Below, one piece after another: positions 1 through 41,488 of a DNA stretch of 64,000 nt. The first letter of the stretch is position 1. Every line of letters begins with the position of its first letter. This DNA is from Nanobdellota archaeon (GTDB taxonomy: Archaea > Nanobdellota > Nanobdellia > CSSed11-243R1). The notes beneath the pieces are model-generated. The model was not told the DNA's origin, did not search any database, and saw only the letters and a list, made by a program, of their open reading frames with translations. A program made the translations under genes and the position numbers. The stretch lies in the NCBI GenBank assembly GCA_021162365.1, contig JAGGYW010000001.1:2906-66905 (forward strand). The letters run 5' to 3'.

Positions 1-942
1 CTCGAGTTCCATGGGATTAAGCATTATTCTGTTAAGTTTAGTGGGGGAACAGGATTTCACATAGGTGTTCCATTTGAGTCATTCCCCAAGGAAATAAATG
101 GGCAAGACATACGTTTGCTTTTCCCAGAGGGTGCACGGACAATTGCAGGGTATATTCGAGATATGATAAAGCAACAGCTTGCGGATAGGGTATTGGAGTT
201 TGAGGATATAAAATCAATAATAAAAAGGACAGGCAAGAAGTTTGATGAGCTTGTTGTTGAAGGGGAGTTAGATCCATTTAAGTTAATTGAGATAGATACT
301 GTTGCAATCTCCTCACGCCATCTCTTTAGGATGCCTTATACTTTTAATGAAAAAACATGGTTAGTTTCAATTCCAATACGAAAGGAGGAAATTCTTTCTT
401 TTGACAAAAAGAGGGCAGAATATAAAAATGTTGAAGTTAACCTCGGCTTTTTAGATAAGTTTAAAATAAATGAAGCAAAGCAGTTGTTTATTCAGGCTTT
501 TGACTGGAGGATGAACCAAGAAATTAAAGCAGAGATAAATGAGCTAAAAAAAGATTATGATATACCAAAAGAAGCAATTGGAAAGGAATTCTTCCCTCCG
601 TGCATTAAAAATATTTACAAAGGATTGGAAGATGGAAGAAAAAGAGCTCTTTTCATTTTAATTAACTTCTTAAGAAGCGTTGGTTGGGATTTTGAAGCAA
701 TTAAAAAGGAAGTATTTGAATGGAATAAACACAATCCCGAGCCCCTTCGAGAAAGTTATATAAACTCTCAGCTCAATTGGCATAAAAAGATAAAAGGTTC
801 ATATTTGCCTCCGGGGTGCAAAAATAAAAATTACTATCTTGATATTGGAATATGTAAGCCAGACGAAACTTGCAAGGGCATTAGTAACCCTGTTGTATAT
901 CCTTTCAAAAAAATGAAAAAGATGAGAAGAAATGGCAGATGA
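1..942 (+). CDS. DNA primase, fused PriS-like catalytic domain + PriL C-terminal Fe-S domain (5' end outside window)
   Basis: Frame +1 is open from nt 1, upstream of the tracked ATG at 115. FSGGTGFHIGV and IEIDTVAISSRHLFRMPYTFNEKT resemble AEP primase motifs. Downstream FPPCIKNI..GRKRALFILINFL plus the PPGC..GIC..ETC cysteines resemble the PriL-CTD 4Fe-4S domain. Confidence 0.6.
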   Translation, partial: LEFHGIKHYSVKFSGGTGFHIGVPFESFPKEINGQDIRLLFPEGARTIAGYIRDMIKQQLADRVLEFEDIKSIIKRTGKKFDELVVEGELDPFKLIEIDTVAISSRHLFRMPYTFNEKTWLVSIPIRKEEILSFDKKRAEYKNVEVNLGFLDKFKINEAKQLFIQAFDWRMNQEIKAEINELKKDYDIPKEAIGKEFFPPCIKNIYKGLEDGRKRALFILINFLRSVGWDFEAIKKEVFEWNKHNPEPLRESYINSQLNWHKKIKGSYLPPGCKNKNYYLDIGICKPDETCKGISNPVVYPFKKMKKMRRNGR

Positions 943-1558
943 GATTATATCCTATGAAGAAATAAGGCGTGTCCAGGCTTTGGAGAGAGATAACAAAGCC
1001 TTGCAGGAGATAGATCCAAATTTCTTTAAAAGGGTAGGTGAGTACATAAAAACAAAGGAGAAACTAATTGAAGAAAATAAAGGGAAAGATAATGTTTTTT
1101 CTCAGCAGATTGTGGAGAAAAATGAACATGAGTTAAAAAATGTAAGGAGGATAATTGAGGATATCTGCAGCAGAAGAAGGAGAAAAATAGTTATGCAAGC
1201 ATTAAATAACATTTCTGCTAAAGTCCACAATACAGAAAACATGCTTCCTGAGGAGGAAGAGTTGTATAATTCTACAATTGAGATTGTAAGGAAGTATACA
1301 GATGCATTTATCTCGAAGTTTAGCGCGCCGAAGGAAGAAGTAAGCGAAGTAAATGAAGAAGAAAAAAGTTTAAAAAAGCTTAAATTCATGGATGCCATAC
1401 CCGCTTTTTTGTGGAAAGATGGAACGACCTATGGTCCATATGAAAAAGAAGCTGTTGCAGGATTGCCCGCAGAACTTGGGGAAATCTTAATAAAGGAAGG
1501 AAAGGCTATTGAAGTTAAGGAAAGTGGTGAAAATGAAGATACCAAAGGAAATCAATAG
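932..1558 (+). CDS. GINS complex subunit (Gins51/Sld5-like)
   Basis: N-terminal helical pattern (YEEIRRVQALERDNKALQEIDPNFF..RRIIEDICSRRRRKI) is typical of archaeal GINS. It sits next to primase, as in many archaea, and overlaps the primase stop. Confidence 0.5.
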   Translation: MADEIISYEEIRRVQALERDNKALQEIDPNFFKRVGEYIKTKEKLIEENKGKDNVFSQQIVEKNEHELKNVRRIIEDICSRRRRKIVMQALNNISAKVHNTENMLPEEEELYNSTIEIVRKYTDAFISKFSAPKEEVSEVNEEEKSLKKLKFMDAIPAFLWKDGTTYGPYEKEAVAGLPAELGEILIKEGKAIEVKESGENEDTKGNQ

Positions 1559-3131: not shown

Positions 3132-3889
3132 GTGAAGCTTTCATAGTTAAAAAAATTGGAAGGAAACCAAGACTTAAGAAGCCAATTTTAATAGAGGGTC
3201 TTCCAGGCGTTGGAAATGTTGCAAGAATTGTTGTTGATGTTTTAATTGATAAATTAAAGGCTAAGAAGTTCCTTGAAGTTTATTCTTACTACTTTCCTAA
3301 TTCGGTTTTTTTAACTGGCGAGCACAAGCTAGAAATGCCAAAGCTTGAGTTTTATTATGCTAAAAGAAAAAAAGGAAGCGACCTTCTTTTTGTAGTCAGC
3401 GATGTCCAGCCCGGAGATGAATATGCTAGTTATGCTTTCTCAGATAAGATTTTAGAAATTGCAAAATCGCTTGGGGTGAAGGAAATTATAACCCTTGGTG
3501 GGATAACTTCAAAAGTGAATGTAGCTAAGCCAAATGTGTATGGCGCATTTACAGATAAGAAGTATGTTAACAAGCTGAAGAAAATTGGTGTGAGATTTGA
3601 TAGAAAAGGTTCTATTATATTAATTGGTGCAGCAGGGCTTCTTTTGGGGCTCGGTGAGTTAAAGGGAATGAAAGGATTTTCTTTGCTTGCAGAATCATTT
3701 GTTGGCTCAAAGATTGGCATTAATGCAGCTCGTCAGATAATTCTTGTTTTAGCTAAGTATCTTGGCATAAAAATTTCAGAGAAGGAGCTGTCATTTGAAG
3801 TTAATCTACCTCAAATACCCAGAATTGTAAGAAAAAGAACAACAAAAAAGGCAACAAAGCCCCAATTTAACCCAACATATATTGGGTGA
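3128..3889 (+). CDS. PAC2-family proteasome assembly chaperone-like protein
   Basis: PILIEGLPGVGNVARIVVDVLI N-terminus and about 250 aa length are typical of archaeal PAC2/COG1938 proteins. Conserved position after nop10. Confidence 0.6.
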   Translation: MSEAFIVKKIGRKPRLKKPILIEGLPGVGNVARIVVDVLIDKLKAKKFLEVYSYYFPNSVFLTGEHKLEMPKLEFYYAKRKKGSDLLFVVSDVQPGDEYASYAFSDKILEIAKSLGVKEIITLGGITSKVNVAKPNVYGAFTDKKYVNKLKKIGVRFDRKGSIILIGAAGLLLGLGELKGMKGFSLLAESFVGSKIGINAARQIILVLAKYLGIKISEKELSFEVNLPQIPRIVRKRTTKKATKPQFNPTYIG

Positions 3890-4828
3890 TTATCTTCCTC
3901 TTAATGTGGTATCTAATGTAGCAATATCTATGCAATATCCATGGTTTATTTCTGTCCTTAGTTGGTATATCTTTGTGCTTTCTTGGAACGCTGCTGGGTT
4001 TGTCGGTTCAATATTCATTTTTAGGAACAACTCCTTTCCTTGGATGAGTTTTAATAAGTATTTGTATTCTCCAACATTATCCGATGTGATTACTAGTGAT
4101 TTACCATCATCGCTGAGCCAATCGCCAAGCTCGCTTTTACTTAATCCACCGAATTTTGTAATTTCAATATTGTCTCCAATTAATGTTATGTTGATCTTTC
4201 TAATTGTATTTAGCGATAAATTATTTGAATAGTTTATATAATCTACCCATCCAGGCCCCACGTTTTTGATTATAATTTGTCCGCTTAATGTGTTTTCATC
4301 GCTGTCTGGGATTACTCTATCAACTCCGAAATTGTAGGCAATATCTAAGAAGTCGCTTGAAACATAGCGACTTGGTGATGGTGGGACATCGTTATAGTCT
4401 CCTGGTATAAACACTAAATCGGTGTATCCTTTTGAGTTGTAATCAAAGCATATTCTAATTGTTGTTGGGCAGTTTATCCTTTCTCCTTCTCCCATCTCTG
4501 GAGCTCTAACATCCCAACTCATATACCTCTGGTTGTTTGGTAGAATTTCATCAACATATGCATCTTCTGCTTCAAGACAACCAAGAATTCTACCTGTAAC
4601 ATTTTCTATTGGGTTTACACCTGTGTTTTTGATTTTTATTCCTATTTGGGCATTTTGATTAGATACTAAGTTGAGTGTGTTTGTTTTTACTCCATTAACA
4701 AGGATTGTTGCATTTAATGTCCCCACTCCTTGTTCTCCACTCCCTTCTTCTTTTTTACCACCTATACATCCGAAAGTTAAAGCTAATAAAAATAATAAAG
4801 AAAATGCCAACAAAGCTTTTTTATTCAC
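3890..4828 (-). CDS. Secreted lipoprotein-like surface protein (paralog 3 of 3)
   Basis: Signal peptide ends in LALTFGCIGG (lipobox-like). It shares the W.V.APE....I.ICFDY and C-terminal YC.DI motifs with the 4840-5709 protein. Confidence 0.6.
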   Translation of the reverse strand: MNKKALLAFSLLFLLALTFGCIGGKKEEGSGEQGVGTLNATILVNGVKTNTLNLVSNQNAQIGIKIKNTGVNPIENVTGRILGCLEAEDAYVDEILPNNQRYMSWDVRAPEMGEGERINCPTTIRICFDYNSKGYTDLVFIPGDYNDVPPSPSRYVSSDFLDIAYNFGVDRVIPDSDENTLSGQIIIKNVGPGWVDYINYSNNLSLNTIRKINITLIGDNIEITKFGGLSKSELGDWLSDDGKSLVITSDNVGEYKYLLKLIQGKELFLKMNIEPTNPAAFQESTKIYQLRTEINHGYCIDIATLDTTLRGR

Positions 4829-16807: not shown

Positions 16808-17066
16808 GGGGCCGTGGTCTAGAAACCCTTTCTTCCCGAAGAAAGCGTTTACGGAAAGAAGGGAAAGTTGGACAACTTGGTCTAGGATGCGTGCCTGGGG
16901 GCACCCTTTCCGCCTTCTTTAGAAAAGAAGGTAGGTTGCCAAGAAAGGGAAAGAAAGGGTAGTCCGGAACGCACGTGGTCCCGAGTAAGCCTTTTCTTTG
17001 GAAAGAAAAGCCTTAAGGGAAAAGAAACCAGGATGGGCTTCGGGAGTTCAAATCTCGGCGGCCCCA
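16808..17066 (+). tRNA. tRNA-Pro (GGG) with three introns (D-loop, anticodon loop, T-arm 53/54)
   Basis: Acceptor GGGGCCG/CGGCCCC+A. D stem GTCT/GGAT. Anticodon stem CGTGC/GCACG with loop CTGGGG. T arm CCGAG-TTCAAAT-CTCGG. Approximate introns 16823-16878, 16901-16969 and 16986-17046 leave a 73-nt mature tRNA. Confidence 0.8.
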
Positions 17067-17114
17067 CTCCATAAATTTTAAATGCATAGAAAAACTTATT
17101 CTCAAGTGTTTAAA

Positions 17115-22631: not shown

Positions 22632-22787
22632 CCCGGCGTAGCTCAATGGTAGAGCGCACGGCTGTAGTGGGATGATGGAGAAATCCATCGTTGAAACCGT
22701 GAGGTTGCTGGTTCGACCAAGCCTTTCTTCCCGAAGAAAGCCTTGAGGGAAAGAAGGGGAGAGGCTTCGAGTTTCCGGCCGCCGGGA
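22632..22787 (+). tRNA. tRNA-Tyr (GTA) with two introns (37/38 and T-loop 58/59)
   Basis: Acceptor CCCGGCG/CGCCGGG+A. D arm GCTC-AATGGTA-GAGC. Anticodon stem CACGG/CCGTG with loop CTGTAG. T arm GCTGG-TTCGA..TT-CCGGC. Approximate introns 22668-22695 and 22717-22772. Confidence 0.8.
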
Positions 22788-22795
22788 CTTCAAAA

Positions 22796-22810
22796 GTTTT
22801 TTAAATATAC
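22796..22810 (+). promoter_or_regulatory. TATA-box candidate for tRNA-Asp
   Basis: GTTTTTTAAATATAC is centred about 29 nt upstream of 22832. Confidence 0.4.
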
Positions 22811-22831
22811 TCACCTAATGAAAAAGTTAGT

Positions 22832-23066
22832 GCCCCGATAGTCTAGCGACCTTTTCTCCCGAGAAAAGCTCGACCAAAAGAGGGAGAAAAGAGCGGACAA
22901 TGGCCTAGGATCCCGGTCTGTCGAGCGGCCCTTCTTAGAAAGAAGCGCCGGCGGAAGAAATTCCGGGAGTGCAGTAAGCCGGGGACCCGGGACACCTTTT
23001 CTTTCAAAAAGAAAAGCTGTACCAAAAGAAAGGGAAGGTGCGGGAATTCAAATCCCGGTCGGGGCG
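22832..23066 (+). tRNA. tRNA-Asp (GTC) with three introns (D-loop, anticodon loop, T-arm 53/54)
   Basis: Acceptor GCCCCGA/TCGGGGC+G. D stem GTCT/GGAT. Anticodon stem CCGGT/GCCGG with loop CTGTCG. T arm CCGGG-TTCAAAT-CCCGG. Approximate introns 22848-22901, 22925-22977 and 22992-23046 leave a 73-nt mature tRNA. Confidence 0.8.
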
Positions 23067-23269
23067 CTTTTTCATTTGGTGATTCTTGTGAAGGTTCTCC
23101 AGCCAAGGTTTAGGAAGGGTAAGAAGAAAAGAAAGAAGTTACGTTCAAAGCAGTTAAAAAAGCAGAAGAGCAGAGGTCGTAAAAGAAATAGAAATAGGAA
23201 GAGAAGATAACTTCAACTTAATCTAAATCTATGGAAACTTTAAAATATTCTATATGTTTTGAGTTTGAT

Positions 23270-32867: not shown

Positions 32868-35042
32868 TTAATCTGTTTTCAATCCCTTTCTTTCTCTGAT
32901 TTTCTTTACTACCGCATCCTGTAGCGACTTTGACAGTTTCTCAAATCTAGAGTTTACAAGGAACCAGAATGCTCTTCCTTCTGTCTCGCCTCTTAACGAA
33001 TCTGTGAATCCAAACATTTCTGCTACTGGTAGCCTTGCTTTTACGATAATGGATTCTCCCTCTTGTTGCATGTCTATCAATTGACCCCTTCTGCTTTGGA
33101 TGATTTTGCTTATTGAACCCATAAATTGTGCCGGTGAATCTATTCTTATTGTCTGCACTGGCTCGTATAATATTGGGTCCGCTTGTAACATTGCTTGCCT
33201 TATTGCATCTCTCACTGCGGGAATTACCTGTGCAGGTCCTCTGTGAATTGCATCTTCGTGAAGGGTTGCGTCCACTAACCTAACTAAAACTTTCATACAT
33301 GGCTCTTTTGCAACAGGACCTGCTTTCATAACTTCTTCAAATGCATTTATTACCATCTCTATTACTTCGTTTATATGCACAATTCCGTGTGTGTTGTCTA
33401 TTAATATCGAGCCGTTGAATATGTCTCTCACACGTTTTGCATCATCTCTTGTAAATCCTGCTTCCTGTAGTTTCTTGAAAAGTTCTTCATCCTTCTTTCT
33501 TGGCTTGACTTCTGGTATTTCTCCACTTTCAATCATTTCAAATACCTTATCTGGAAGTGGTTCAACTGTTATGAAAAACTTGTTGTGCTTGTTTGGAGAC
33601 TTCCCTTCTACTACAGGTGATTTCTTTGAAACAGATTCTCTGTAAACAACTATTGGAGGGGATGTTTTTATCTCCAACCCCATTTCCCTTCTTAAGTCGT
33701 CTTCAACTATCTCTAAGTGAAGCTCACCTAAACCCGAAACAAGGTGCTCTCCAGTTTCTTCATTAATTTCTACTTTTAGTGTTGGGTCTTCTCTGCTTTT
33801 GTTCCTTAGAGCCTCAATTAATTTGTTTAGGTCTTTTGGATTTTTTGCCTCGAATGCTTTTGTAACAACAGGTTCAAATATGTGTTTAATCTTTTCAAAT
33901 GGCTCAACTCCTTTTATGGATGAAACTGTATCTCCAGAACTTACACCTCTTAATCCGACTACACCAATTATGTTGCCCGCGGGTACTTCTTCAACGGTAT
34001 ATTTGTGTGGTCCTTTCCATATGTAAATCTGCTGTGCTTTTGTTTGGCTTCCATCGCTTAGGTAAACTGTGTCTCCGCGATGCAAAGTTCCAGAATAAAT
34101 TCTTGCTATGGCAATTTCACCTGCATGTGGGTCCATGATTACTTTGGAAATTGCCATCATTAATGGACCCTTTTCATCACATGATAGCAACGCTTTCCCA
34201 ACTTCTGATTCGGGATCACCATGCCATATTGCAGTTACCCTATATTTTTGTGCTTCTACAGGGCTTGGTAAGTGCTTTACAATCATATCAAGGATTGCAA
34301 CATGGACTGGTGCTTTTTTCGCAAATTCCTTTACAGCATCTTCCCCTTTTTGATATGCATCTACAACATCTTTGAATGAGATTCCTGTTTCTTTCATTAT
34401 TGGGAAGGAAAGCGCCCACTTGTCCATAGCGCTTCCAAATACGACACTACCTTCCTGCACGTTTACTTGCCATTTTTCTTTAAATTCTTCAGGAGCTAAA
34501 TCCCGAATTAACTTGTTGACATCTGAAATAATTTTTAGGAATTGCTCCTGCATTTTTTCAGGAGTTAATCTCAATTCGGAAATTAATCTATCTGACTTGT
34601 TTATGAAGAGAACGGGTTTTACTTTTTCTCTTAATGCTTGCCTTAGAACTGTTTCTGTCTGTGGCATAACTCCCTCTGCGGCATCTGCTAAGACAAGAGC
34701 ACCATCAATTGCACGGATTGCCCTTGTTACATCTCCACCAAAGTCGACATGCCCAGGGGTATCAATTAAGTTAATAAGATAATCCTCGCCTTTGTAGGTG
34801 TGGACCATGTTTACATCTGCTGATTGAACTGTGATACCTCTCTCCTGCTCTACTTGTTTAAAGTCAGTTACCATAGCTTGTGTAGCTACCTCGTAAGAAA
34901 TCATGCCTGCCCCAGCAAGCAAGGTATCTGTTGTAGTTGTTTTTCCATGATCTATGTGTGCAATTACACCAATATTTCTAATTCTTTCTTTGTGCCACAT
35001 GGCTTTTTTTACTTTTTCAAGCATTGACTCTTTTTCTGCCAA
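32868..35042 (-). CDS. fusA: Translation elongation factor aEF-2
   Basis: AHIDHGKTT and DTPGHVDF G-domain motifs. Diphthamide-region HEDAIHRG. Confidence 0.9.
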   Translation of the reverse strand: MAEKESMLEKVKKAMWHKERIRNIGVIAHIDHGKTTTTDTLLAGAGMISYEVATQAMVTDFKQVEQERGITVQSADVNMVHTYKGEDYLINLIDTPGHVDFGGDVTRAIRAIDGALVLADAAEGVMPQTETVLRQALREKVKPVLFINKSDRLISELRLTPEKMQEQFLKIISDVNKLIRDLAPEEFKEKWQVNVQEGSVVFGSAMDKWALSFPIMKETGISFKDVVDAYQKGEDAVKEFAKKAPVHVAILDMIVKHLPSPVEAQKYRVTAIWHGDPESEVGKALLSCDEKGPLMMAISKVIMDPHAGEIAIARIYSGTLHRGDTVYLSDGSQTKAQQIYIWKGPHKYTVEEVPAGNIIGVVGLRGVSSGDTVSSIKGVEPFEKIKHIFEPVVTKAFEAKNPKDLNKLIEALRNKSREDPTLKVEINEETGEHLVSGLGELHLEIVEDDLRREMGLEIKTSPPIVVYRESVSKKSPVVEGKSPNKHNKFFITVEPLPDKVFEMIESGEIPEVKPRKKDEELFKKLQEAGFTRDDAKRVRDIFNGSILIDNTHGIVHINEVIEMVINAFEEVMKAGPVAKEPCMKVLVRLVDATLHEDAIHRGPAQVIPAVRDAIRQAMLQADPILYEPVQTIRIDSPAQFMGSISKIIQSRRGQLIDMQQEGESIIVKARLPVAEMFGFTDSLRGETEGRAFWFLVNSRFEKLSKSLQDAVVKKIRERKGLKTD

Positions 35043-35776: not shown

Positions 35777-37402
35777 ATGGGTGCTCGATTTATTTTCATT
35801 GTTGGTGGAGTTCTTTCTGGACTTGGCAAGGGCATCGTCACTTCATCTATTGGAAAATTACTCCAAAGTTATGGCTACAAAGTTACTGCAATAAAGATTG
35901 ACCCTTACATAAACATAGATGCTGGAACTATGCGCCCGACAGAACATGGGGAAGTTTGGGTCACAGAAGATGGTGGAGAAATAGATCAAGATTTAGGGAA
36001 TTATGAAAGGTTTCTAAATAGAAACTTGCCGAAAAGGAATAACATTACTACTGGTCAAATTTATCTTTCTGTTATTAAAAGAGAAAGAGCACTTGGATAT
36101 AATGGAAAAAATGCGGAAGTTATTCCTGACATAATTAATGAAATAAAAGATAGGATAAGACAGGTAGAAGAAGATAATGACTTTGTGCTTGTTGAAATTG
36201 GAGGTACAACAGGTGATATACAAAATGAAGTTTTTCTTTACGCAGCTCGCGAGTTAGGTAGAGAGAATCCTTCGATTTACATTTTGGTTACATACTTACC
36301 TTTTCTTAAAAATGTTGGTGAATTGAAAACAAAACCGACTCAGCAGGCAGCTGCTTTGTTAAGGGCAACGGGTATTGTTCCTGACTTCATTGTCACCCGT
36401 AGTGATAGACGATTAGATGAGCCAAGAAGAGAAAAAATTTCCAAACAGTGTTTCATAGATAAAGAGGCAGTTATTGAAGACCCGGATTGTGAAACTGTTT
36501 ACGAAGTTCCGCTTTTGTTTAAAGAGCAAAACTTTGGTAAAAAAATTCTTGCTAAGTTTGGTCTTGAGCCGAAGAAGGATGACTTAGGAAATTGGACAAA
36601 ATTAATTGAAAATATGAAAAATGCAGATAAGGTTGTAAAAGTGGGTGTTGTAGGAAAATATGTCGCTTATGGTGATGCGGAACACAAAGATGTTTATATT
36701 TCTGTTTTAGAAGCAATTAAACATGCTGCCGCACATTTAAAGGTTAAACCAATAATTGAGCAAATTCAGTCCACGAGAATTGAAGAAGAGGGTACAAACA
36801 TTTTAAGAAAATATGATGGTATTGTTGTTCCAGGTGGCTTTGGGAAAACAGGAACGGAAGGTATAATTGAAACGATTAAATTCTGTCGTGAAAATAATGT
36901 TCCTTTCCTTGGGCTTTGTTATGGGATGCAGATGGCAGTTATTGAATTTGCGAGGAATGTTTGCGGACTAAAAGGTGCGAATACAACTGAGAATGAGCCA
37001 GATACACCCTGCCCAGTAATTGACTTTATGCCAGAACAAAAGGAACTAATTAAACTAAAACAATATGGGGCCACGATGAGACTTGGTGCTTACCCGGCAG
37101 TTTTGAAAGAGGGCACAAAGGTGAGGGAACTCTACGGCAAAGAGTTTGTTTCAGAAAGGCATAGACATAGGTATGAGGTGAATCCAGAATATATAGAAAC
37201 TTTGGAAGAACACGGCTTGGTTTTCTCTGGAACTTCCCCCAATAAAACTCTCATGGAATTTTTAGAGCTGCCAAATCACAGATTTTTCATTGCAACACAG
37301 GCACACCCAGAATTCCACTCGAGGTTTGAAAAGCCAGCTCCATTGTTTATGGGATTCCTAAAGGCGTGCTTAGAAATGCCTCAACAAAAAACACTAAGTT
37401 AG
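35777..37402 (+). CDS. pyrG: CTP synthase
   Basis: GGVLSGLGKG N-terminus and the GATase GLCYGMQ catalytic Cys region, 541 aa. Confidence 0.9.
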   Translation: MGARFIFIVGGVLSGLGKGIVTSSIGKLLQSYGYKVTAIKIDPYINIDAGTMRPTEHGEVWVTEDGGEIDQDLGNYERFLNRNLPKRNNITTGQIYLSVIKRERALGYNGKNAEVIPDIINEIKDRIRQVEEDNDFVLVEIGGTTGDIQNEVFLYAARELGRENPSIYILVTYLPFLKNVGELKTKPTQQAAALLRATGIVPDFIVTRSDRRLDEPRREKISKQCFIDKEAVIEDPDCETVYEVPLLFKEQNFGKKILAKFGLEPKKDDLGNWTKLIENMKNADKVVKVGVVGKYVAYGDAEHKDVYISVLEAIKHAAAHLKVKPIIEQIQSTRIEEEGTNILRKYDGIVVPGGFGKTGTEGIIETIKFCRENNVPFLGLCYGMQMAVIEFARNVCGLKGANTTENEPDTPCPVIDFMPEQKELIKLKQYGATMRLGAYPAVLKEGTKVRELYGKEFVSERHRHRYEVNPEYIETLEEHGLVFSGTSPNKTLMEFLELPNHRFFIATQAHPEFHSRFEKPAPLFMGFLKACLEMPQQKTLS

Positions 37403-38652
37403 TTTTTAATGAACCCCGCCTTTATTGCTGCTTTTTCTATTTGATGTGGATTCTTTTCTTGCAGTATGGTGTATTTCTCTTTCTTCTTGAATTCCCTTGC
37501 AGAGAGAAGAAGTTCAAGTCCTTGTTTATCTGTTAAACCAAGTTCTTCGGCTGATGTTGCTAGTCCAACTTTTTGGAGCACCCCTTTTATTTTTCCAGGG
37601 ACAAAGAAGGGATTATATCTATTCCAATTTCTGCTGTGGAGTAAAACCATAGTTGGTACTACCACACCAACTTGCTCGCCATGATATGTACTTTTTTCAG
37701 GATATGTTTGATCTAAAACATGGCTAAAATTATGCTCTGCACCAGAAGCCGGCAAAGAACTTCCCGCTATTGACATTATAACAGAGCTTGCCACCTCTGA
37801 AAGTAAAAGTAATCTTAGAAACTTTCTGTCAATTGAATAACTGTTATCATCATAGACATACCCATTTATCCTTCTGGGCAACTTTAGTGTGGCTTGTATT
37901 ATAACATAACTTAACATTTTGCTTGCCTTGCTTAATGTTTCCCCATACTTTACTTTATCCTTAAAGTTTCTGTTTTTGCTTGCGAGTTCCCAATCCTTTG
38001 CTGCAGTATAGTTAGAAATTATGTCTCCAACACCAGACATATTCATTTTGTATGGTGCTTCAGAAATTATGTGGGGTATATCAGCAATTACTGCAATAGG
38101 GAGCTTTGTTTGTATAGTTTTTCTTATTAAGTTGCCTTCGTTATCGTTGACAAGTATGCTTGCTCTGTCAGAAGCAACTCCATCATGCGCGGTACTTGTT
38201 GGGCAACTTATTATCCTTTGGTAGTCTCTCTCCTTTCGTTTTGTTTTTTTGTAAGCCGCTGCTTTTGCAAGGTCAATTGAGGAACCACCACCGAGGCCAA
38301 TGACGCCATCAACTTTGTTTTTGTTTATTAAGTCATTTAGTGCAGCTATTGTTGTATGTGTTGGGGGGGATTCAGGATTGTAGAATATGTAAACTTCAAG
38401 CCCACTCTCTTCCAAATAGTCCTTTACTTTTTCAGCAACGTCTGCGGTAAATCCATTTTTTCTCCCAGTTGCGATATATACTCTGTGCCATCCAAGTCCA
38501 AATGTTGTATCTAAAATTTTCTTCTCAAGAAAATCTTCGTCTTTTGTATACATTCCAATACTTACTCTTGAAGGTAAGTAGACGTCCCTATCTATTCCAC
38601 TCCCACTTCCTTTTAGGATGTCTTCTATTGTTTTCTCTAAGTAGCCGAACAT
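37399..38652 (-). CDS. egsA: sn-Glycerol-1-phosphate dehydrogenase-like (iron-ADH superfamily)
   Basis: GLGGGSSIDLAK, CPTSTAHDGVASDRASI and GVGDIISNYTAAKDWELA resemble conserved EgsA blocks. At 417 aa it is longer than typical EgsA. Confidence 0.6.
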   Translation of the reverse strand: MFGYLEKTIEDILKGSGSGIDRDVYLPSRVSIGMYTKDEDFLEKKILDTTFGLGWHRVYIATGRKNGFTADVAEKVKDYLEESGLEVYIFYNPESPPTHTTIAALNDLINKNKVDGVIGLGGGSSIDLAKAAAYKKTKRKERDYQRIISCPTSTAHDGVASDRASILVNDNEGNLIRKTIQTKLPIAVIADIPHIISEAPYKMNMSGVGDIISNYTAAKDWELASKNRNFKDKVKYGETLSKASKMLSYVIIQATLKLPRRINGYVYDDNSYSIDRKFLRLLLLSEVASSVIMSIAGSSLPASGAEHNFSHVLDQTYPEKSTYHGEQVGVVVPTMVLLHSRNWNRYNPFFVPGKIKGVLQKVGLATSAEELGLTDKQGLELLLSAREFKKKEKYTILQEKNPHQIEKAAIKAGFIKN

Positions 38653-38664
38653 AAAGCACCCAAT

Positions 38665-38693
38665 TGTATAAATCTAAATAGGTGTATAAATCT
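38665..38693 (-). promoter_or_regulatory. Duplicated TATA-like box upstream of egsA
   Basis: TGTATAAATCT occurs twice on the plus strand (38665-38675, 38683-38693). The minus strand reads AGATTTATACA. The proximal copy lies 13-23 nt from the ATG at 38652. Confidence 0.35.
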
Positions 38694-38717
38694 TACTATT
38701 TCATAGTAGCGATAGAA

Positions 38718-38762
38718 TTACCTTGAAGCAGCTGCCTGTCTTTGCACTTTTTCTTTAGAAAA
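38718..38762 (-). pseudogene. Orphan duplicate of the S7 gene 3' end (15 codons incl. stop)
   Basis: Minus strand reads ttt tct aaa gaa aaa gtg caa aga cag gca gct gct tca agg taa (FSKEKVQRQAAASR*). The true S7 end is ISKKTEVERQAAASR* at 38803-38850. Most differences are third-position and synonymous. Confidence 0.65.
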
Positions 38763-38787
38763 GAAAACCTGCACTAAAAGAAAAAGG
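38748..38787 (+). repeat. Py-hairpin + mirror purine module (copy E10)
   Basis: TTTTCTTT (38749-38756), loop AGA, AAAGAAAA (38760-38767), spacer CCTGCACT, AAAAGAAA (38776-38783, exact mirror). The pyrimidine arm is contributed by the S7 3'-end duplicate. Confidence 0.7.
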
Positions 38788-38802
38788 ATTAAATGTATGA
38801 GA

Positions 38803-39399
38803 TTACCTTGACGCTGCAGCTTGTCTTTCTACTTCTGTTTTCTTTGAAATTGCAAATGATTTTGGATCTTCCTTGCTTGCTGCAATTATTTCGTTTGCTA
38901 GCCCTTTCTCAATTGGCACTTTTTTATCGGCAACTGCTTGGAAAGCACCTTGAGTTAACCACCTTAAAGCCAAGTCAACTCTTCTTTGTGGTGAGGTATC
39001 AACTTGCTTTGGGACTCTTATTCCTCCGATTTCAATTACAGTGACCTCATCCCTTGGGGCTGCGTTTTCAACAGCTCTAACAAGAACTTCGACAGGATTT
39101 TGTTTGGTTTGCTTTTCAATTATTTCAAATGTTTTCTTTGTTATGTTGTAAACAGTTTGTGATTTTCCGGTACAGAACTCACTTGTCCTCCAGTGCTTCT
39201 TACCTTTGTGACCAGGGGACATAAGTTTGTTCATGAATCTTTCAACAATGTTAACATTACTTTTAGCAAACCTTGTGCTTGCATGTCTGCCATATGTTTG
39301 TGGGACAAAGAGAGGCTTTAAGTTTATAACACTCTTTAATCCAGGATCTTTGACTTCCACATTCGTATCATACTTCCCGAAAATTTTTATTTCCACCAT
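38803..39399 (-). CDS. rps7: 30S ribosomal protein S7
   Basis: 198 aa with typical archaeal S7 sequence (VERFMNKLM..GKK, VENAAPRDEV, RRVDLALRW). Confidence 0.9.
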   Translation of the reverse strand: MVEIKIFGKYDTNVEVKDPGLKSVINLKPLFVPQTYGRHASTRFAKSNVNIVERFMNKLMSPGHKGKKHWRTSEFCTGKSQTVYNITKKTFEIIEKQTKQNPVEVLVRAVENAAPRDEVTVIEIGGIRVPKQVDTSPQRRVDLALRWLTQGAFQAVADKKVPIEKGLANEIIAASKEDPKSFAISKKTEVERQAAASR

Positions 39400-39408
39400 C
39401 TTATCTCA

Positions 39409-39444
39409 CTTTTCTTTGGTTAATCTTTCTTTTTAAGAAAGATT
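39409..39444 (-). repeat. Py-hairpin + purine tract module (copy E11, imperfect mirror)
   Basis: Plus strand has a 10-bp hairpin AATCTTTCTT-TTT-AAGAAAGATT (39422-39444) overlapping the S12 stop. The minus strand continues TAACC-AAAGAAAAG. Confidence 0.55.
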
Positions 39445-39883
39445 ATCGCATTGGTTTTTCTTTTCTACCTTTTACAAGTTCTTTTATTGAAACACCATTA
39501 ACTTTTATGACTCTAAATTTAACACCTGGCATGTCACCAAACGCTCTTCTTTGCGGAGCACCCATTCTTTCAATTATGACTTCGTTGTGTTCATCTATGA
39601 ATTTAATTGCGCCAGGACCATAGCCAGCATAAGCAGTAACGGTTCTTCCGTTTTTAGCAACCTGCACCTTCACACATTTTCTTAAACCTGAGTGTGGCTG
39701 CTTAACTTCTATCTCCATTTTTTGTAGAACAATTCCTCTTGCTGCAGGAGCACCCTCGAGCGGATCTGTTTTTTTGTAAAGTTTTGTCTTCATCTTTTTC
39801 AAATCTTTTTTTGCGAATAGAAATTTCTTTCTTCGCTGTCTAAGCTTCTTTCCTGCATTAAGTCCTCTTGGTTTATTAGCCAT
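39443..39883 (-). CDS. rps12: 30S ribosomal protein S12
   Basis: KQPHSGLRKCVKVQV..NGRTVTAYAGYGP..MPGVKFRVIKVNGVS. The internal ATG (MANKPRG) gives the usual length of about 147 aa. Confidence 0.9.
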   Translation of the reverse strand: MANKPRGLNAGKKLRQRRKKFLFAKKDLKKMKTKLYKKTDPLEGAPAARGIVLQKMEIEVKQPHSGLRKCVKVQVAKNGRTVTAYAGYGPGAIKFIDEHNEVIIERMGAPQRRAFGDMPGVKFRVIKVNGVSIKELVKGRKEKPMR

Positions 39884-40037
39884 ATCATTTTTCAATTCAA
39901 AACCCTTTATAAATCTTACTAAGAATTTTTGGTTCGAAAACATACTCAAATTGTAGAAATATAGAGTAACTTGTTAATAACCGCAATATTTTTAAAACCC
40001 TATATTTTATTTGCTCTAAAGATATTCAACTGAAAAT

Positions 40038-40053: not shown

Positions 40054-41319
40054 ATGGCAGCAAAACCACACATAAATTTGGTCGTAATTGGTCACGTAGA
40101 CCATGGGAAGTCGACGATTGTAGGAAGATTACTTTATGAAACAGGTACAATCACCGAACAGGATATTGAAAGGTTAAAGAAAGAGGCAGCCGCCTTGGGT
40201 AAAGCCACATTCGAGTTTGCATATGTACTTGATGCAACTCGTGAAGAAAGAACAAGGGGTGTCACAATTGATTTGTCTCACATGAAATTCGAAACCCCAA
40301 AATATTACTTTACAATAATTGATGCACCTGGGCACAGAGACTTCATTAAAAACATGATTACAGGTGCGGCACAAGCAGATGCAGCTGTACTTGTAGTGGC
40401 TGCAAAAGAGGGTATCCAACCACAGACAAAGGAGCACGCATTCCTTGCGAAGGTTCTTGGAATTAAGCAGTTCATCGTTGCAATTAACAAAATGGATACA
40501 GTGGATTACAAAGAGGACGCATACAACCAAGTTAAGGCAGAGCTTGAAAAGTTCTTGAAGACAGCAGGGTTTAAGATAGACGAGATTACATTTGTGCCTG
40601 TGAGTGCATTAGAGGGTGAAAACGTAACAAAGAAGCTTGGAAAGATGCCATGGTGGAAGGGTCCAACATTGCTTGAAGCACTTGATGCACTTAAAGAGCC
40701 AGAAAAGCCAATTGACTTGCCACTTAGATTGCCAATACAAGATGTTTACTCAATTACAGGTATTGGTACAGTGCCTGTAGGAAGAGTTGAGACAGGTGTA
40801 ATGAAAGTTGGTCAGAAAGTTATCTTTGAGCCAGCAAATGTCTCAGGAGAAGTTAAGTCAATCGAAATGCACCATGAACAGATGCAGGAAGCAAAGCCAG
40901 GTGACAACATTGGTTTCAACGTGCGTGGTGTGACAAAAGAACAAATTAAGAGAGGAGATGTTGTTGGTCCAGTTGAAAACCCACCAACAGTTGCAAAAGA
41001 ATTCACAGCACAAATGGTTATCTTACACCACCCAACTGCAATTAGCAAGGGTTACACACCAGTATTGCACGCACACACAACACAAGTACCAGTTAAGTTT
41101 AAGGAATTGAAGCAAAAGCTTGATCCAAGAACAGGTCAAGTAGCACAAGAAAACCCAGACATGCTTAAGACAGGAGATGCAGCAGTTGTTGTGCTTGAAC
41201 CACAGAAGCCATTAGTAATTGAAAAGAGAAGCGAAATTCCAAAGCTTTCAAGCTTTGCAGTTAGAGACATGGGTGAAACAGTTGGTGCTGGCTTCGCAAT
41301 TGACATTGTGAAGCGCTAA
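40054..41319 (+). CDS. tuf: Translation elongation factor aEF-1 alpha
   Basis: [17 protein letters not shown] and NKMD G-domain motifs, 421 aa. Confidence 0.95.
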
Positions 41320-41340
41320 TTTCTTTCTTTACACTTTCTC
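41308..41340 (+). repeat. Direct repeat copy 1 (last 4 tuf codons + 3' flank)
   Basis: GTGAAGCGCTAATTTCTTTCTTTACACTTTCTC. It recurs at 41457-41488 with one indel and two mismatches. Confidence 0.7.
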
Positions 41341-41379
41341 TTTCTTTTCAAGAAAGAGAACCTGTGCTAAGAGAAAGAA
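41336..41379 (+). repeat. Py-hairpin + mirror purine module (copy E12)
   Basis: TTCTCTTTCTT (41336-41346), loop TTC, AAGAAAGAGAA (41350-41360), spacer CCTGTGCT, AAGAGAAAGAA (41369-41379). This is an exact 11-nt mirror with three matched G positions. Confidence 0.8.
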
Positions 41380-41397
41380 TCTTCTCCTTTGGTGCGA

Positions 41398-41450
41398 CTT
41401 TTCTTTTTTGATTTTTCTCTTTGGTAAAGCTTTTTCTTCCTAAGAAAAAG
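41398..41450 (-). repeat. Py-hairpin + purine tracts module (copy E13, opposite orientation, imperfect)
   Basis: Plus-strand hairpin CTTTTTCTT-CCT-AAGAAAAAG (41430-41450). The minus strand continues CTTTACC-AAAGAGAAAAA-TC-AAAAAAGAAAAG. Only the distal tract approximates the mirror. Confidence 0.5.
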
Positions 41451-41456
41451 GTTTTT

Positions 41457-41488
41457 GTGAAGCGCTAATCTTTTCTTTGCACTTTTTC
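41457..41488 (+). repeat. Direct repeat copy 2 (orphan copy of tuf 3' end + flank)
   Basis: GTGAAGCGCTAATCTTTTCTTTGCACTTTTTC lies 149 nt downstream of copy 1. Confidence 0.7.

Follow-up and report, generated by a model that had tools for sequence, protein, structure and literature searches.

An orphan copy of the ribosomal protein S7 gene end beside a hairpin module in a Nanobdellota archaeon: a possible fossil of a local rearrangement

In a stretch of 64,000 nucleotides (nt) from a Nanobdellota archaeon (contig JAGGYW010000001.1; hereafter the window), the last codons of the gene for ribosomal protein S7 (uS7) occur a second time, in the 150-nt intergenic region that separates S7 from the next gene, egsA. 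The stop codon of this orphan tail (38718-38720) lies 85 nt beyond that of S7 itself (38803-38805). An earlier, sequence-only reading had noticed the copy and proposed that it evolved as coding sequence elsewhere before arriving as a scar of recombination or integration. We find that the copy is genuine but shorter than had been thought, and a coding history elsewhere does not appear to be required. Our best explanation, which we hold tentatively and at a little less than even chances, is that a small local rearrangement at an unstable terminator module left the orphan behind as a non-coding remnant of the 3′ end of S7. The elements concerned are these:

38803-38829, minus strand: true 3′ end of S7, ...GAAAGACAAGCTGCAGCGTCAAGGTAA
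38776-38787, minus strand: T-rich run CCTTTTTCTTTT, by its sequence a likely archaeal oligo-T terminator signal
38743-38775, minus strand: pyrimidine/purine (Py/Pu) hairpin AGTGCAGG-TTTTCTTT-TCT-AAAGAAAA-AGTGCA, found as an inverted repeat and as a local minimum-free-energy hairpin
38718-38743, minus strand: S7-derived orphan AAAGACAGGCAGCTGCTTCAAGGTAA, corresponding to [E]RQAAASR and a stop

Written in codons on the minus strand, the orphan as first delimited is tct aaa gaa aaa gtg caa aga cag gca gct gct tca agg taa (38759-38718, 42 nt). A repeat search returned an ungapped direct repeat of 40 nt (38717-38756 and 38802-38841) with 78% identity at a spacing of 85 nt. When the last 60 nt of S7 were aligned locally with the 150-nt region, the score was 22, compared with 8.1 ± 1.4 in dinucleotide shuffles, and 0/5000 shuffles reached 22; the last 27 nt alone scored 18 against 6.3 ± 1.1, again with 0/5000. 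The orphan is also kept in L069, one of the relatives' S7 loci with which we compared the window (L001, L002, L055-L064 and L066-L071). L069 was assembled independently (Logan), from another run and with another assembler. Its contig starts inside the hairpin, without the true S7 tail, and reads GTTTTTCTTTTTAAGAAAAAAGTGCAGCAAAGACAAGCAGCTGCTTCAAGGTAATTCTATTGCCACTATAAAATAG...ATG(egsA), with one substitution in the orphan (CAA for CAG) and an adjacent 3-nt indel. The shuffles and this independent copy rule out chance similarity, and the different run and assembler rule out an assembly artefact. That a real copy of the S7 end stands 85 nt past the stop, as the sequence-only reading had it, is therefore sound.

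The homology is uneven, however. The last 26 nt match the true tail at 22 of 26 positions, and the first ~16 nt of the 42 match S7 no better than random A-rich sequence. Since this 5′ stretch is the arm of a hairpin that L001 and L002 hold without an S7-like continuation, we take only about 25-26 nt (38718-38743), the last seven sense codons and the stop, to be derived from S7, and not 45 nt. The stop had been placed correctly at 38718, but the start at 38762 lay 3 nt too far out. Likewise, the former tally of seven synonymous changes, three replacements and one codon deletion adds up arithmetically, but the replacements and the deletion all fall in the hairpin arm and do not belong to the S7-derived part.

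We scanned every open reading frame (ORF) in the window (59-71 ORFs) for a copy of its own tail in the 300-400 nt downstream, and the only outliers were S7 and EF-1α. Among 55 other DPANN S7 loci scanned for orphan tails, none rose above background: the maximum score was 13, mismatched tail/downstream pairs used as controls reached 15, and the window scored 21 in the same kind of scan.

The S7 protein ends in ...AISKKTEVERQAAASR (also given as ...KKTEVERQAAASR), and after its stop codon the minus strand reads TAA-TCTCATACATTTAAT-CCTTTTTCTTTT-AGTGCAGG-TTTTCTTT-TCT-AAAGAAAA-AGTGCA-AAGACAGGCAGCTGCTTCAAGGTAA-TTCTATC-GCTACTATGAAATAG...TTTATACA...ATG(egsA). The hairpin arms (38743-38756 and 38760-38773) are 14 nt long, pair at 12 of 14 positions (86%) and enclose a 3-nt loop. 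The 3′ arm (38743-38759) consists of the purine arm and AGTGCA and makes up the 5′ third of what had been called the orphan, so the earlier remark that the copy overlaps a hairpin module was accurate. The T-rich run doubles as the module's mirror-repeat "third strand" (mirror 8/8 at +8 nt from the hairpin on the plus strand). With it the module spans 38743-38787, and the orphan begins at the module's very edge. In S7-sense RNA the order is U-rich strand, spacer, U-rich arm, loop and A-rich arm. L001, whose S7 is 92% identical, has the same hairpin 3′ of S7, GTGCAGGTTTTTCTTTTTAAGAAAAATGTAG, which runs straight into the convergent pyrG stop; L002 (S7 91%) has TTCTAAAGAAAAAGTG, identical over 16 nt, and in neither does an S7 tail follow the hairpin. 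The hairpins of L069 and L001 are identical at 20/20 positions. With U-tracts on both strands, a hairpin and a mirror purine run, this module is probably the S7/pyrG terminator.

The sequence-only reading had put its weight on the synonymous character of the differences, and the bias itself is borne out at the codon level: in the seven homologous sense codons (RQAAASR), 4/4 differences fall at third positions (P = 0.0034 if random). We polarised these differences with seven other S7 tails as outgroups. GCT and GCG proved to be changes on the window's functional S7 tail, where most relatives and both orphans have GCA and GCT. GCA to GCT lies on the orphan branch and is common to L069, and CAA to CAG is specific to the window orphan. 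Two changes thus belong to the functional copy, which appears synonymous because only synonymous changes persist there, and two to the orphan, for which third-position changes alone give P ≈ 0.07. The L069 orphan matches the L001 S7 tail at 20/21 positions and the window's own tail at 18/21, and from these comparisons the orphan looks like the clade's consensus tail, frozen in place. A foreign history does not seem to be required for the synonymous look, the bias fails as proof of coding evolution in another lineage, and no donor-like S7 was found in related genomes. When a gene end and its relic differ mostly at synonymous sites, this alone does not indicate a foreign coding origin.

The remaining features of the locus, in a window of 36.6% G+C, are the following:

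39443-39949, minus strand: ribosomal protein S12
38803-39399, minus strand: ribosomal protein S7, an ORF with 3932 homologs, PF00177, best identity 92%
38653-38717, minus strand: egsA upstream region, with the linker TTCTATC, then the conserved GCTACTATGAAATAG, and GGTG ahead of the ATG
38683-38690, minus strand: TATA-like box TTTATACA, with a second copy at 38665-38672 (direct repeat)
37399-38652, minus strand: "egsA", a divergent glycerol-1-phosphate (G1P) dehydrogenase-like protein of the Fe-ADH family, 417 amino acids (aa), NCBIfam NF002022
35777-37402, plus strand: pyrG, convergent with the 417-aa gene
40054-41319, plus strand: EF-1α

Read along the minus strand, the downstream order is S12, S7, the intergenic region, the 417-aa gene, pyrG (plus strand), a 189-aa ORF and EF-2. 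The nearest S7 proteins are annotated as Nanoarchaeota/Woesearchaeota-like, which places the window in that DPANN group. In Aenigmarchaeota- and Micrarchaeota-type loci EF-2 follows S7 after 6-100 nt. The window's own clade (S7 at least 77% identical) differs: nearly all loci that reach far enough (L001/L070, L002/L059-61, L055, L062/63, L064/71 and L068) have S7, convergent pyrG, a small ORF and EF-2, the exception being L066/67 (79%), with eIF-1A, LemA and a peptidase after S7. The S7-EF2 linkage was therefore interrupted before the orphan arose and independently of it, and egsA, pyrG and the ORF are not one interruption, as had been supposed. The only variable part of the locus is the slot between S7 and the pyrG stop. 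L001 and L064 have nothing there, unrelated convergent ORFs of 148-208 aa fill it in L002, L055, L062 and L068, and the window, L069 and L056-58 alone have egsA in it, in the direction of S7.

The egsA protein scores 226 bits against NF002022, whose curated cut-off is 413, so that the name is reasonable but not secure. Among 5.8 billion proteins it has two close homologs only, 95% (L069) and 84% (L056) identical; the next are Methanosarcina-type enzymes at 40-44%. Many DPANN archaea are described as being without lipid-synthesis genes, which gives the gain of an egsA-like gene its interest, and the orphan dates and locates a rearrangement by the S7 terminator in a lineage that gained this rare gene. 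The stops of the convergent egsA and pyrG overlap by 4 nt (37399-37402), leaving no room for a terminator between them. The same junction is found in L069 (1369-1372) and L056 (about 2545-2548), and egsA therefore entered the slot once. The TATA-like box at 38683-38690 and its flanking block are conserved in L069 and L056, and this position and conservation suggest that the egsA promoter lies there. The orphan, about 28 nt upstream of the box, indeed stands ahead of the egsA promoter, as had been stated, and in the one variable slot of the locus. The box and its flank occur in tandem 18 nt apart (38665-38690), as TAGTAAGATTTATACA and TATTTAGATTTATACA; L069 has both and L056 the first only.

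Which of the egsA-bearing loci have the orphan is informative. L069 has the arrangement of the window: module, orphan, promoter, egsA. L056-58 have the same S7-egsA-pyrG order with a single tail and no orphan (S7-TAA-AGATATA-TTTCTTTTTAAAAAAAG-TATTAGT-GCTACTATGAGATAG), and their intergenic region differs from that of the window by further indels too. In a multiple alignment, a 34-nt block between hairpin and promoter block is present in the window and L069 and not in L056. Because L056-58 share the gene order without the copy, the orphan appears to have arisen inside the egsA-bearing group, before the window and L069 split, and it is not a necessary by-product of the arrival of egsA, to which the sequence-only reading had tied it.

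This distribution bears on the idea of an imported scar. A related lineage's S7-egsA DNA might have recombined into an L001-like locus, with the orphan as the donor's S7 tail; one joint would be homologous, in pyrG, and the other illegitimate, at an AAAGA microhomology between module end and donor tail (homology-facilitated illegitimate recombination). Compared with L001, the window has exactly the orphan, the egsA promoter and egsA between the module and the pyrG stop, and its orphan-linker-GCTACTATG parallels the S7 tail-linker-(hairpin)-GCTACTATG of L056. In addition, egsA is a rare gain in three lineages only, and the identities are mosaic (EF-2 94% to L002 against 84% to L001, S7 92% to L001). 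However, L056-58 have the full order and the same pyrG junction without an orphan, no donor-type S7 was found, and the orphan fits the clade consensus tail and points to no distinct lineage. The synonymous pattern is accounted for without foreign coding history, and tail copies arose at EF-1α, as described below, without gene import. We consider an imported scar unlikely. Taken broadly, the proposal of a recombination or integration scar was partly right, in that the orphan most likely marks a rearrangement; its link to the whole egsA-pyrG-ORF block did not hold.

The identities deserve mention in their own right. EF-2 of the window (region 32868-35042) is 94% identical to that of L002, 93% to L055 and 84% to L001, unlike S7, S12 and EF-1α, which are equally close or closer to L001. 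This gene-by-gene incongruence hints at recombination among lineages of the window's clade. Fourfold-degenerate sites between lineages are near saturation (0.3-0.56 identity), for which reason mosaicism of S12/S7 against egsA/pyrG gives no reliable tree signal. We scanned JGI metagenome contigs and IMG/VR for the exact pattern of the orphan, and metagenome contigs for that of the egsA promoter block, each with 0 matches; these scans yielded no extra lineages and no viral or att-like source.

The second outlier of the window-wide scan, EF-1α, offers a parallel:

41455-41469, plus strand: EF-1α orphan tail TTGTGAAGCGCTAAT, a 15/15 copy of the true end at 41306-41320

This copy follows two Py/Pu modules and lies 5 nt past a purine arm. 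In L059, of the L002 lineage, the EF-1α tail together with TAA-TTGCAC and the first module arm recurs 268 nt downstream as a 33/33 repeat (3826-3858 and 4093-4125); the copy begins right after a purine arm and GGTGC, and a 42-nt piece of the module is also repeated. In both cases the copy starts 5-6 nt beyond a module's purine arm, there is no inserted gene, and the upstream region of the next gene follows the tail copy. From these alignments, 100% identical in L059, the EF-1α copies clearly seem to be of intragenomic origin. Two translation genes in one 64-kb window with tail copies adjoining modules point to the module family as a hotspot of genome change.

The modules share an anatomy: a Py arm, a 2-5-nt loop, a complementary Pu arm, an 8-nt spacer (often CCTGYRCT) and a mirror of the Pu arm. 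The window has 11 perfect Py/Pu hairpins; eight have a full-length mirror copy of an arm adjacent and two more have one at 8/9. Among the eight, seven carry the Pu-arm mirror downstream (six at exactly +8 nt) and one the Py-arm mirror upstream. By its sequence the module would be a motif of the H-DNA, or intramolecular-triplex, type. Modules lie 3′ of the stops of S7, EF-1α, S27e and, in L001, pyrG, at the following positions:

2024-2070, 2093-2111, 16828-17040, 22723-23040, 38743-38787, 41336-41380 and 41395-41450: modules in the window
6600-6645 in L001, 6598-6720 in L002 and 3715-4112 in L059: modules in relatives

Orthologous modules differ in sequence and keep hairpin and mirror. Module A of EF-1α, for example, reads TTCTCTTTCTT/AAGAAAGAGAA/AAGAGAAAGAA in the window and TTTTCTTTCTTTT/AAGAAAGAAA/AAAGAAAGAAA in L059, and is absent in L070.

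On these grounds we can outline how the orphan may have formed. Once egsA stood between S7 and pyrG, and before the window lineage and L069 parted, a duplication or recombination in their shared ancestor would have had its breakpoint at the end of the Py/Pu hairpin module 3′ of S7. DNA of the H-DNA/triplex type could promote breaks and template switching; passages of one source describe H-DNA mirror repeats as bringing DNA and RNA polymerases to a halt and making the genome unstable (PMC11667243), and passages of another describe blockage of transcription (PMC4538819). By analogy, the module is a plausible reason for the concentration of breakpoints, duplications and gene turnover at this slot. 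A duplication that spared the upstream gene copy would be neutral and could persist. Afterwards the functional S7 tail would change only synonymously, which would create the "synonymous" look, and the orphan would remain as a spacer between the S7 terminator and the egsA promoter, possibly under some acquired constraint.

Only the tail is repeated: past the orphan (TTCTATCGCTAC...) there is no second T-run and hairpin. Three routes fit: duplication of the tail across the module with loss of the second module, recombination between an L001-like and an L056-like locus, and insertion of the module with duplication of its target. The intragenomic EF-1α cases favour the first, and the exact placing of orphan, promoter and egsA between module and pyrG stop in an otherwise L001-like locus favours the second. 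The third is weakened by the variable repeat lengths and by module positions that are orthologous in L001/L070.

Several points weigh against a local fossil. In the passages of PMC11667243 concerned, the organisms in which H-DNA is linked to instability are bacteria and eukaryotes, not DPANN archaea. A plain tandem duplication would have copied the module too, so that a second step (deletion) or a non-tandem mechanism is needed, and three egsA-bearing lineages are too few to resolve the direction of events. Finally, the orphan has changed little: over 27 nt there is 1 substitution between the window and L069, for which the binomial P is ~6e-4 if neutral, in a single, post hoc comparison, given that fourfold-degenerate sites of egsA are 69% identical between the two (n = 156). 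The adjoining hairpin (7/27 positions varied, indels included) and linker (3/17) change at about the pace of silent sites, and the TATA block is invariant. This slow change, unexplained by a neutral fossil, would be compatible with constraint, with gene conversion or with a cold spot of mutation at this place.

Module-interrupted tRNA genes are an observation of their own. At 16808-17075 and 22632-23080 in the window, and at 560-1000 (reverse) in L070, tRNA genes are interrupted by 1-3 modules at non-canonical sites in the D loop, the anticodon region or the T loop, and they were missed by ARAGORN and by Rfam at its gathering threshold. The tRNA-Tyr(GTA) gene at 22632-22790 gives a valid tRNA only without a 54-nt T-loop module, besides a 28-nt anticodon-loop intron, and a module with other arm sequences occupies this T-loop site in the L001 lineage. 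Short direct repeats flank tRNA modules (TGGTCTAG 8/8; GGTTCGA versus GCTTCGA), in a search that required repeats and is biased to that extent.

Could the modules themselves be insertion elements that land at gene 3′ ends, the true tail and the orphan being the duplicated target? Tail copies do flank module inserts at S7 and EF-1α, the EF-1α cases have GCAC...GTGC inverted termini, and the tRNA repeats just mentioned would fit, although the search that found them was biased towards repeats. Transposase footprints are unlike these repeats, which range from 4 to 33 nt, and the repeat in L059 includes part of the module. The S7 and tRNA-Tyr T-loop modules sit at orthologous sites in L001 and are thus old, passed down vertically. 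No transposase, reverse transcriptase or integrase is linked to the modules, integrase and recombinase genes elsewhere in the window not having been searched for. We regard target duplication as decidedly unlikely. A wider proposal is a long shot of much the same order: a family of ~45-135-nt Py/Pu modules with hairpin, mirror run and an architecture of the triple-helix type would have left the orphan tails at S7 and EF-1α as its footprints. These modules would be structured insertions maintained by selection, spliced from tRNAs and capping the 3′ ends of highly expressed translation genes; their spread or turnover would duplicate gene ends, and they would form an undescribed intron- or terminator-like class of DPANN elements.

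Other recurrences near modules gave less. We do not count S27e as a third orphan, as the candidate after its two modules scores at background. The S27e tail AAAGTTCTTGAAGT (KVLEV, 2001-2014) recurs exactly over 14 nt in the coding sequence of eIF-2α at ~2361-2374, also as KVLEV, probably a coincidence of shared peptide and codon bias. Between two modules, both L002 (6620-6700, 3′ of S7, antisense) and L059 (3895-3990, 3′ of EF-1α) have a G+C-richer segment of ~50-100 nt. By eye these are about 70% alike (GAGTGAC.TTGT.GCT...CGAA.CAAAG...), a similarity that BLAST did not confirm, and the segment may represent a small RNA or a repeated element. The ~100-nt segment of L059 is rejected as a repeated mobile element, since BLAST found no other significant copies of it.

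Does the S7 orphan do anything now? No ORF of at least 20 aa covers it, and an in-frame TAG lies 8 codons upstream of the egsA ATG, which together rule out a small ORF or an N-terminal extension of egsA. Rfam covariance models gave no match at E ≤ 1 in 38300-39500, and RNA folding at the orphan region has an energy like that of shuffles (z = 0.01). Nothing indicates that the orphan is expressed or structured, and from its sequence it most likely does nothing. The working parts of the intergenic region are in all likelihood the terminator module on its upstream side and the TATA box on its downstream side.

The slow change between the window and L069 might nevertheless reflect a function acquired later. 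The orphan could be an operator upstream of egsA, about -55 to -80, with the palindrome AAGCAGCTGCTT in L069 and GCAGCTGC inside the window orphan, or a partner in the S7 3′ untranslated region that pairs GCUGCAGC/GCAGCUGC with the true tail. Its conservation is far above that of fourfold sites and close to that of the TATA region, in contrast to the variable hairpin and linker on its flanks, and the single orphan-specific change common to both lineages, the A-to-T change of GCA to GCT, completes a perfect 12-nt palindrome in L069. We find exaptation very unlikely all the same: it rests on one pairwise comparison made post hoc, L056, which has no orphan, drives egsA from the same promoter, and there is no fold signal. 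Nor is the palindrome recurrent upstream of genes; as a recurrent regulatory motif GCAGCTGC is unsupported, its only other copy in the window being inside the pyrG coding region. There, at 36341-36353 (codons QQAAALL), pyrG has CAGGCAGCTGCTT, 13/13 identical to the orphan centre at 38726-38738, an identity we regard as a coincidence of two QAAA-coding stretches.

Hardly credible, finally, is an orphan still expressed as protein, by splicing from the true tail, by a +1 frameshift near the S7 end, or as an 18-codon mini-ORF starting at GTG. The orphan frame is open for 37 codons, back into the last codons of S7, the window and L069 differ there by one synonymous-type change and an in-frame 3-nt indel, and the same module family must leave tRNAs at the RNA level. 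Yet we identified no bulge-helix-bulge motif, a ribosome-binding context is lacking, such a product would only be a second copy of a C-terminus that is already complete, the joint probability of the two "coding-like" differences is ~0.1, and nothing similar occurs in the 55 other DPANN S7 loci.

Among known systems, several resemble the S7 orphan in part. The attL/attR duplications of integrative elements at gene 3′ ends also show a direct repeat of a gene end, with one copy completing the gene and the other orphaned downstream. The two S7 copies, in contrast, are 22/26 (85%) identical, unlike the near-identical core repeats of att sites, the 58 nt between them hold the hairpin module only, with no ORF of at least 20 aa and no integrase, and the cargo, egsA, lies outside the repeat pair. 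Target-site duplications of miniature inverted-repeat transposable elements and insertion sequences are similar in that direct repeats flank an insert resembling an inverted repeat and the same type of module occurs at several genome sites. Here, however, the length of the repeat is not fixed (~26 nt at S7, 15 nt at EF-1α of the window, 33 nt in L059 with module included, 4-8 nt at tRNAs), no transposase is evident, and relatives have the modules at orthologous sites. A simple tandem duplication would repeat the whole unit and not the tail only, so further deletion is required. A coding S7 C-terminus or small ORF is a poor match, given the lack of an ORF of at least 20 aa over the orphan and the P of only ≈0.07 for the two orphan-branch third-position changes. 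As for archaeal oligo-T and bidirectional terminators, it is the S7 module, not the orphan, that resembles them: it has U-tracts on both strands and, in L001, sits between the convergent S7 and pyrG stops, though its mirror purine run is outside the known archaeal terminator signal and its role in termination is suggested by sequence features. The closest likeness is with gene relics at rearrangement junctions, as in homology-facilitated illegitimate recombination and non-B DNA duplications. As in those, a short, untranslated copy of a gene end lies where a conserved gene gives way to a variable slot, abuts a hairpin/mirror-repeat motif and leaves the functional copy intact; it differs in being better conserved than expected of junk, and in a mechanism that is proposed from sequence here. 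The orphan is a fresh example of this known kind, and the module family beside it is the more unusual.

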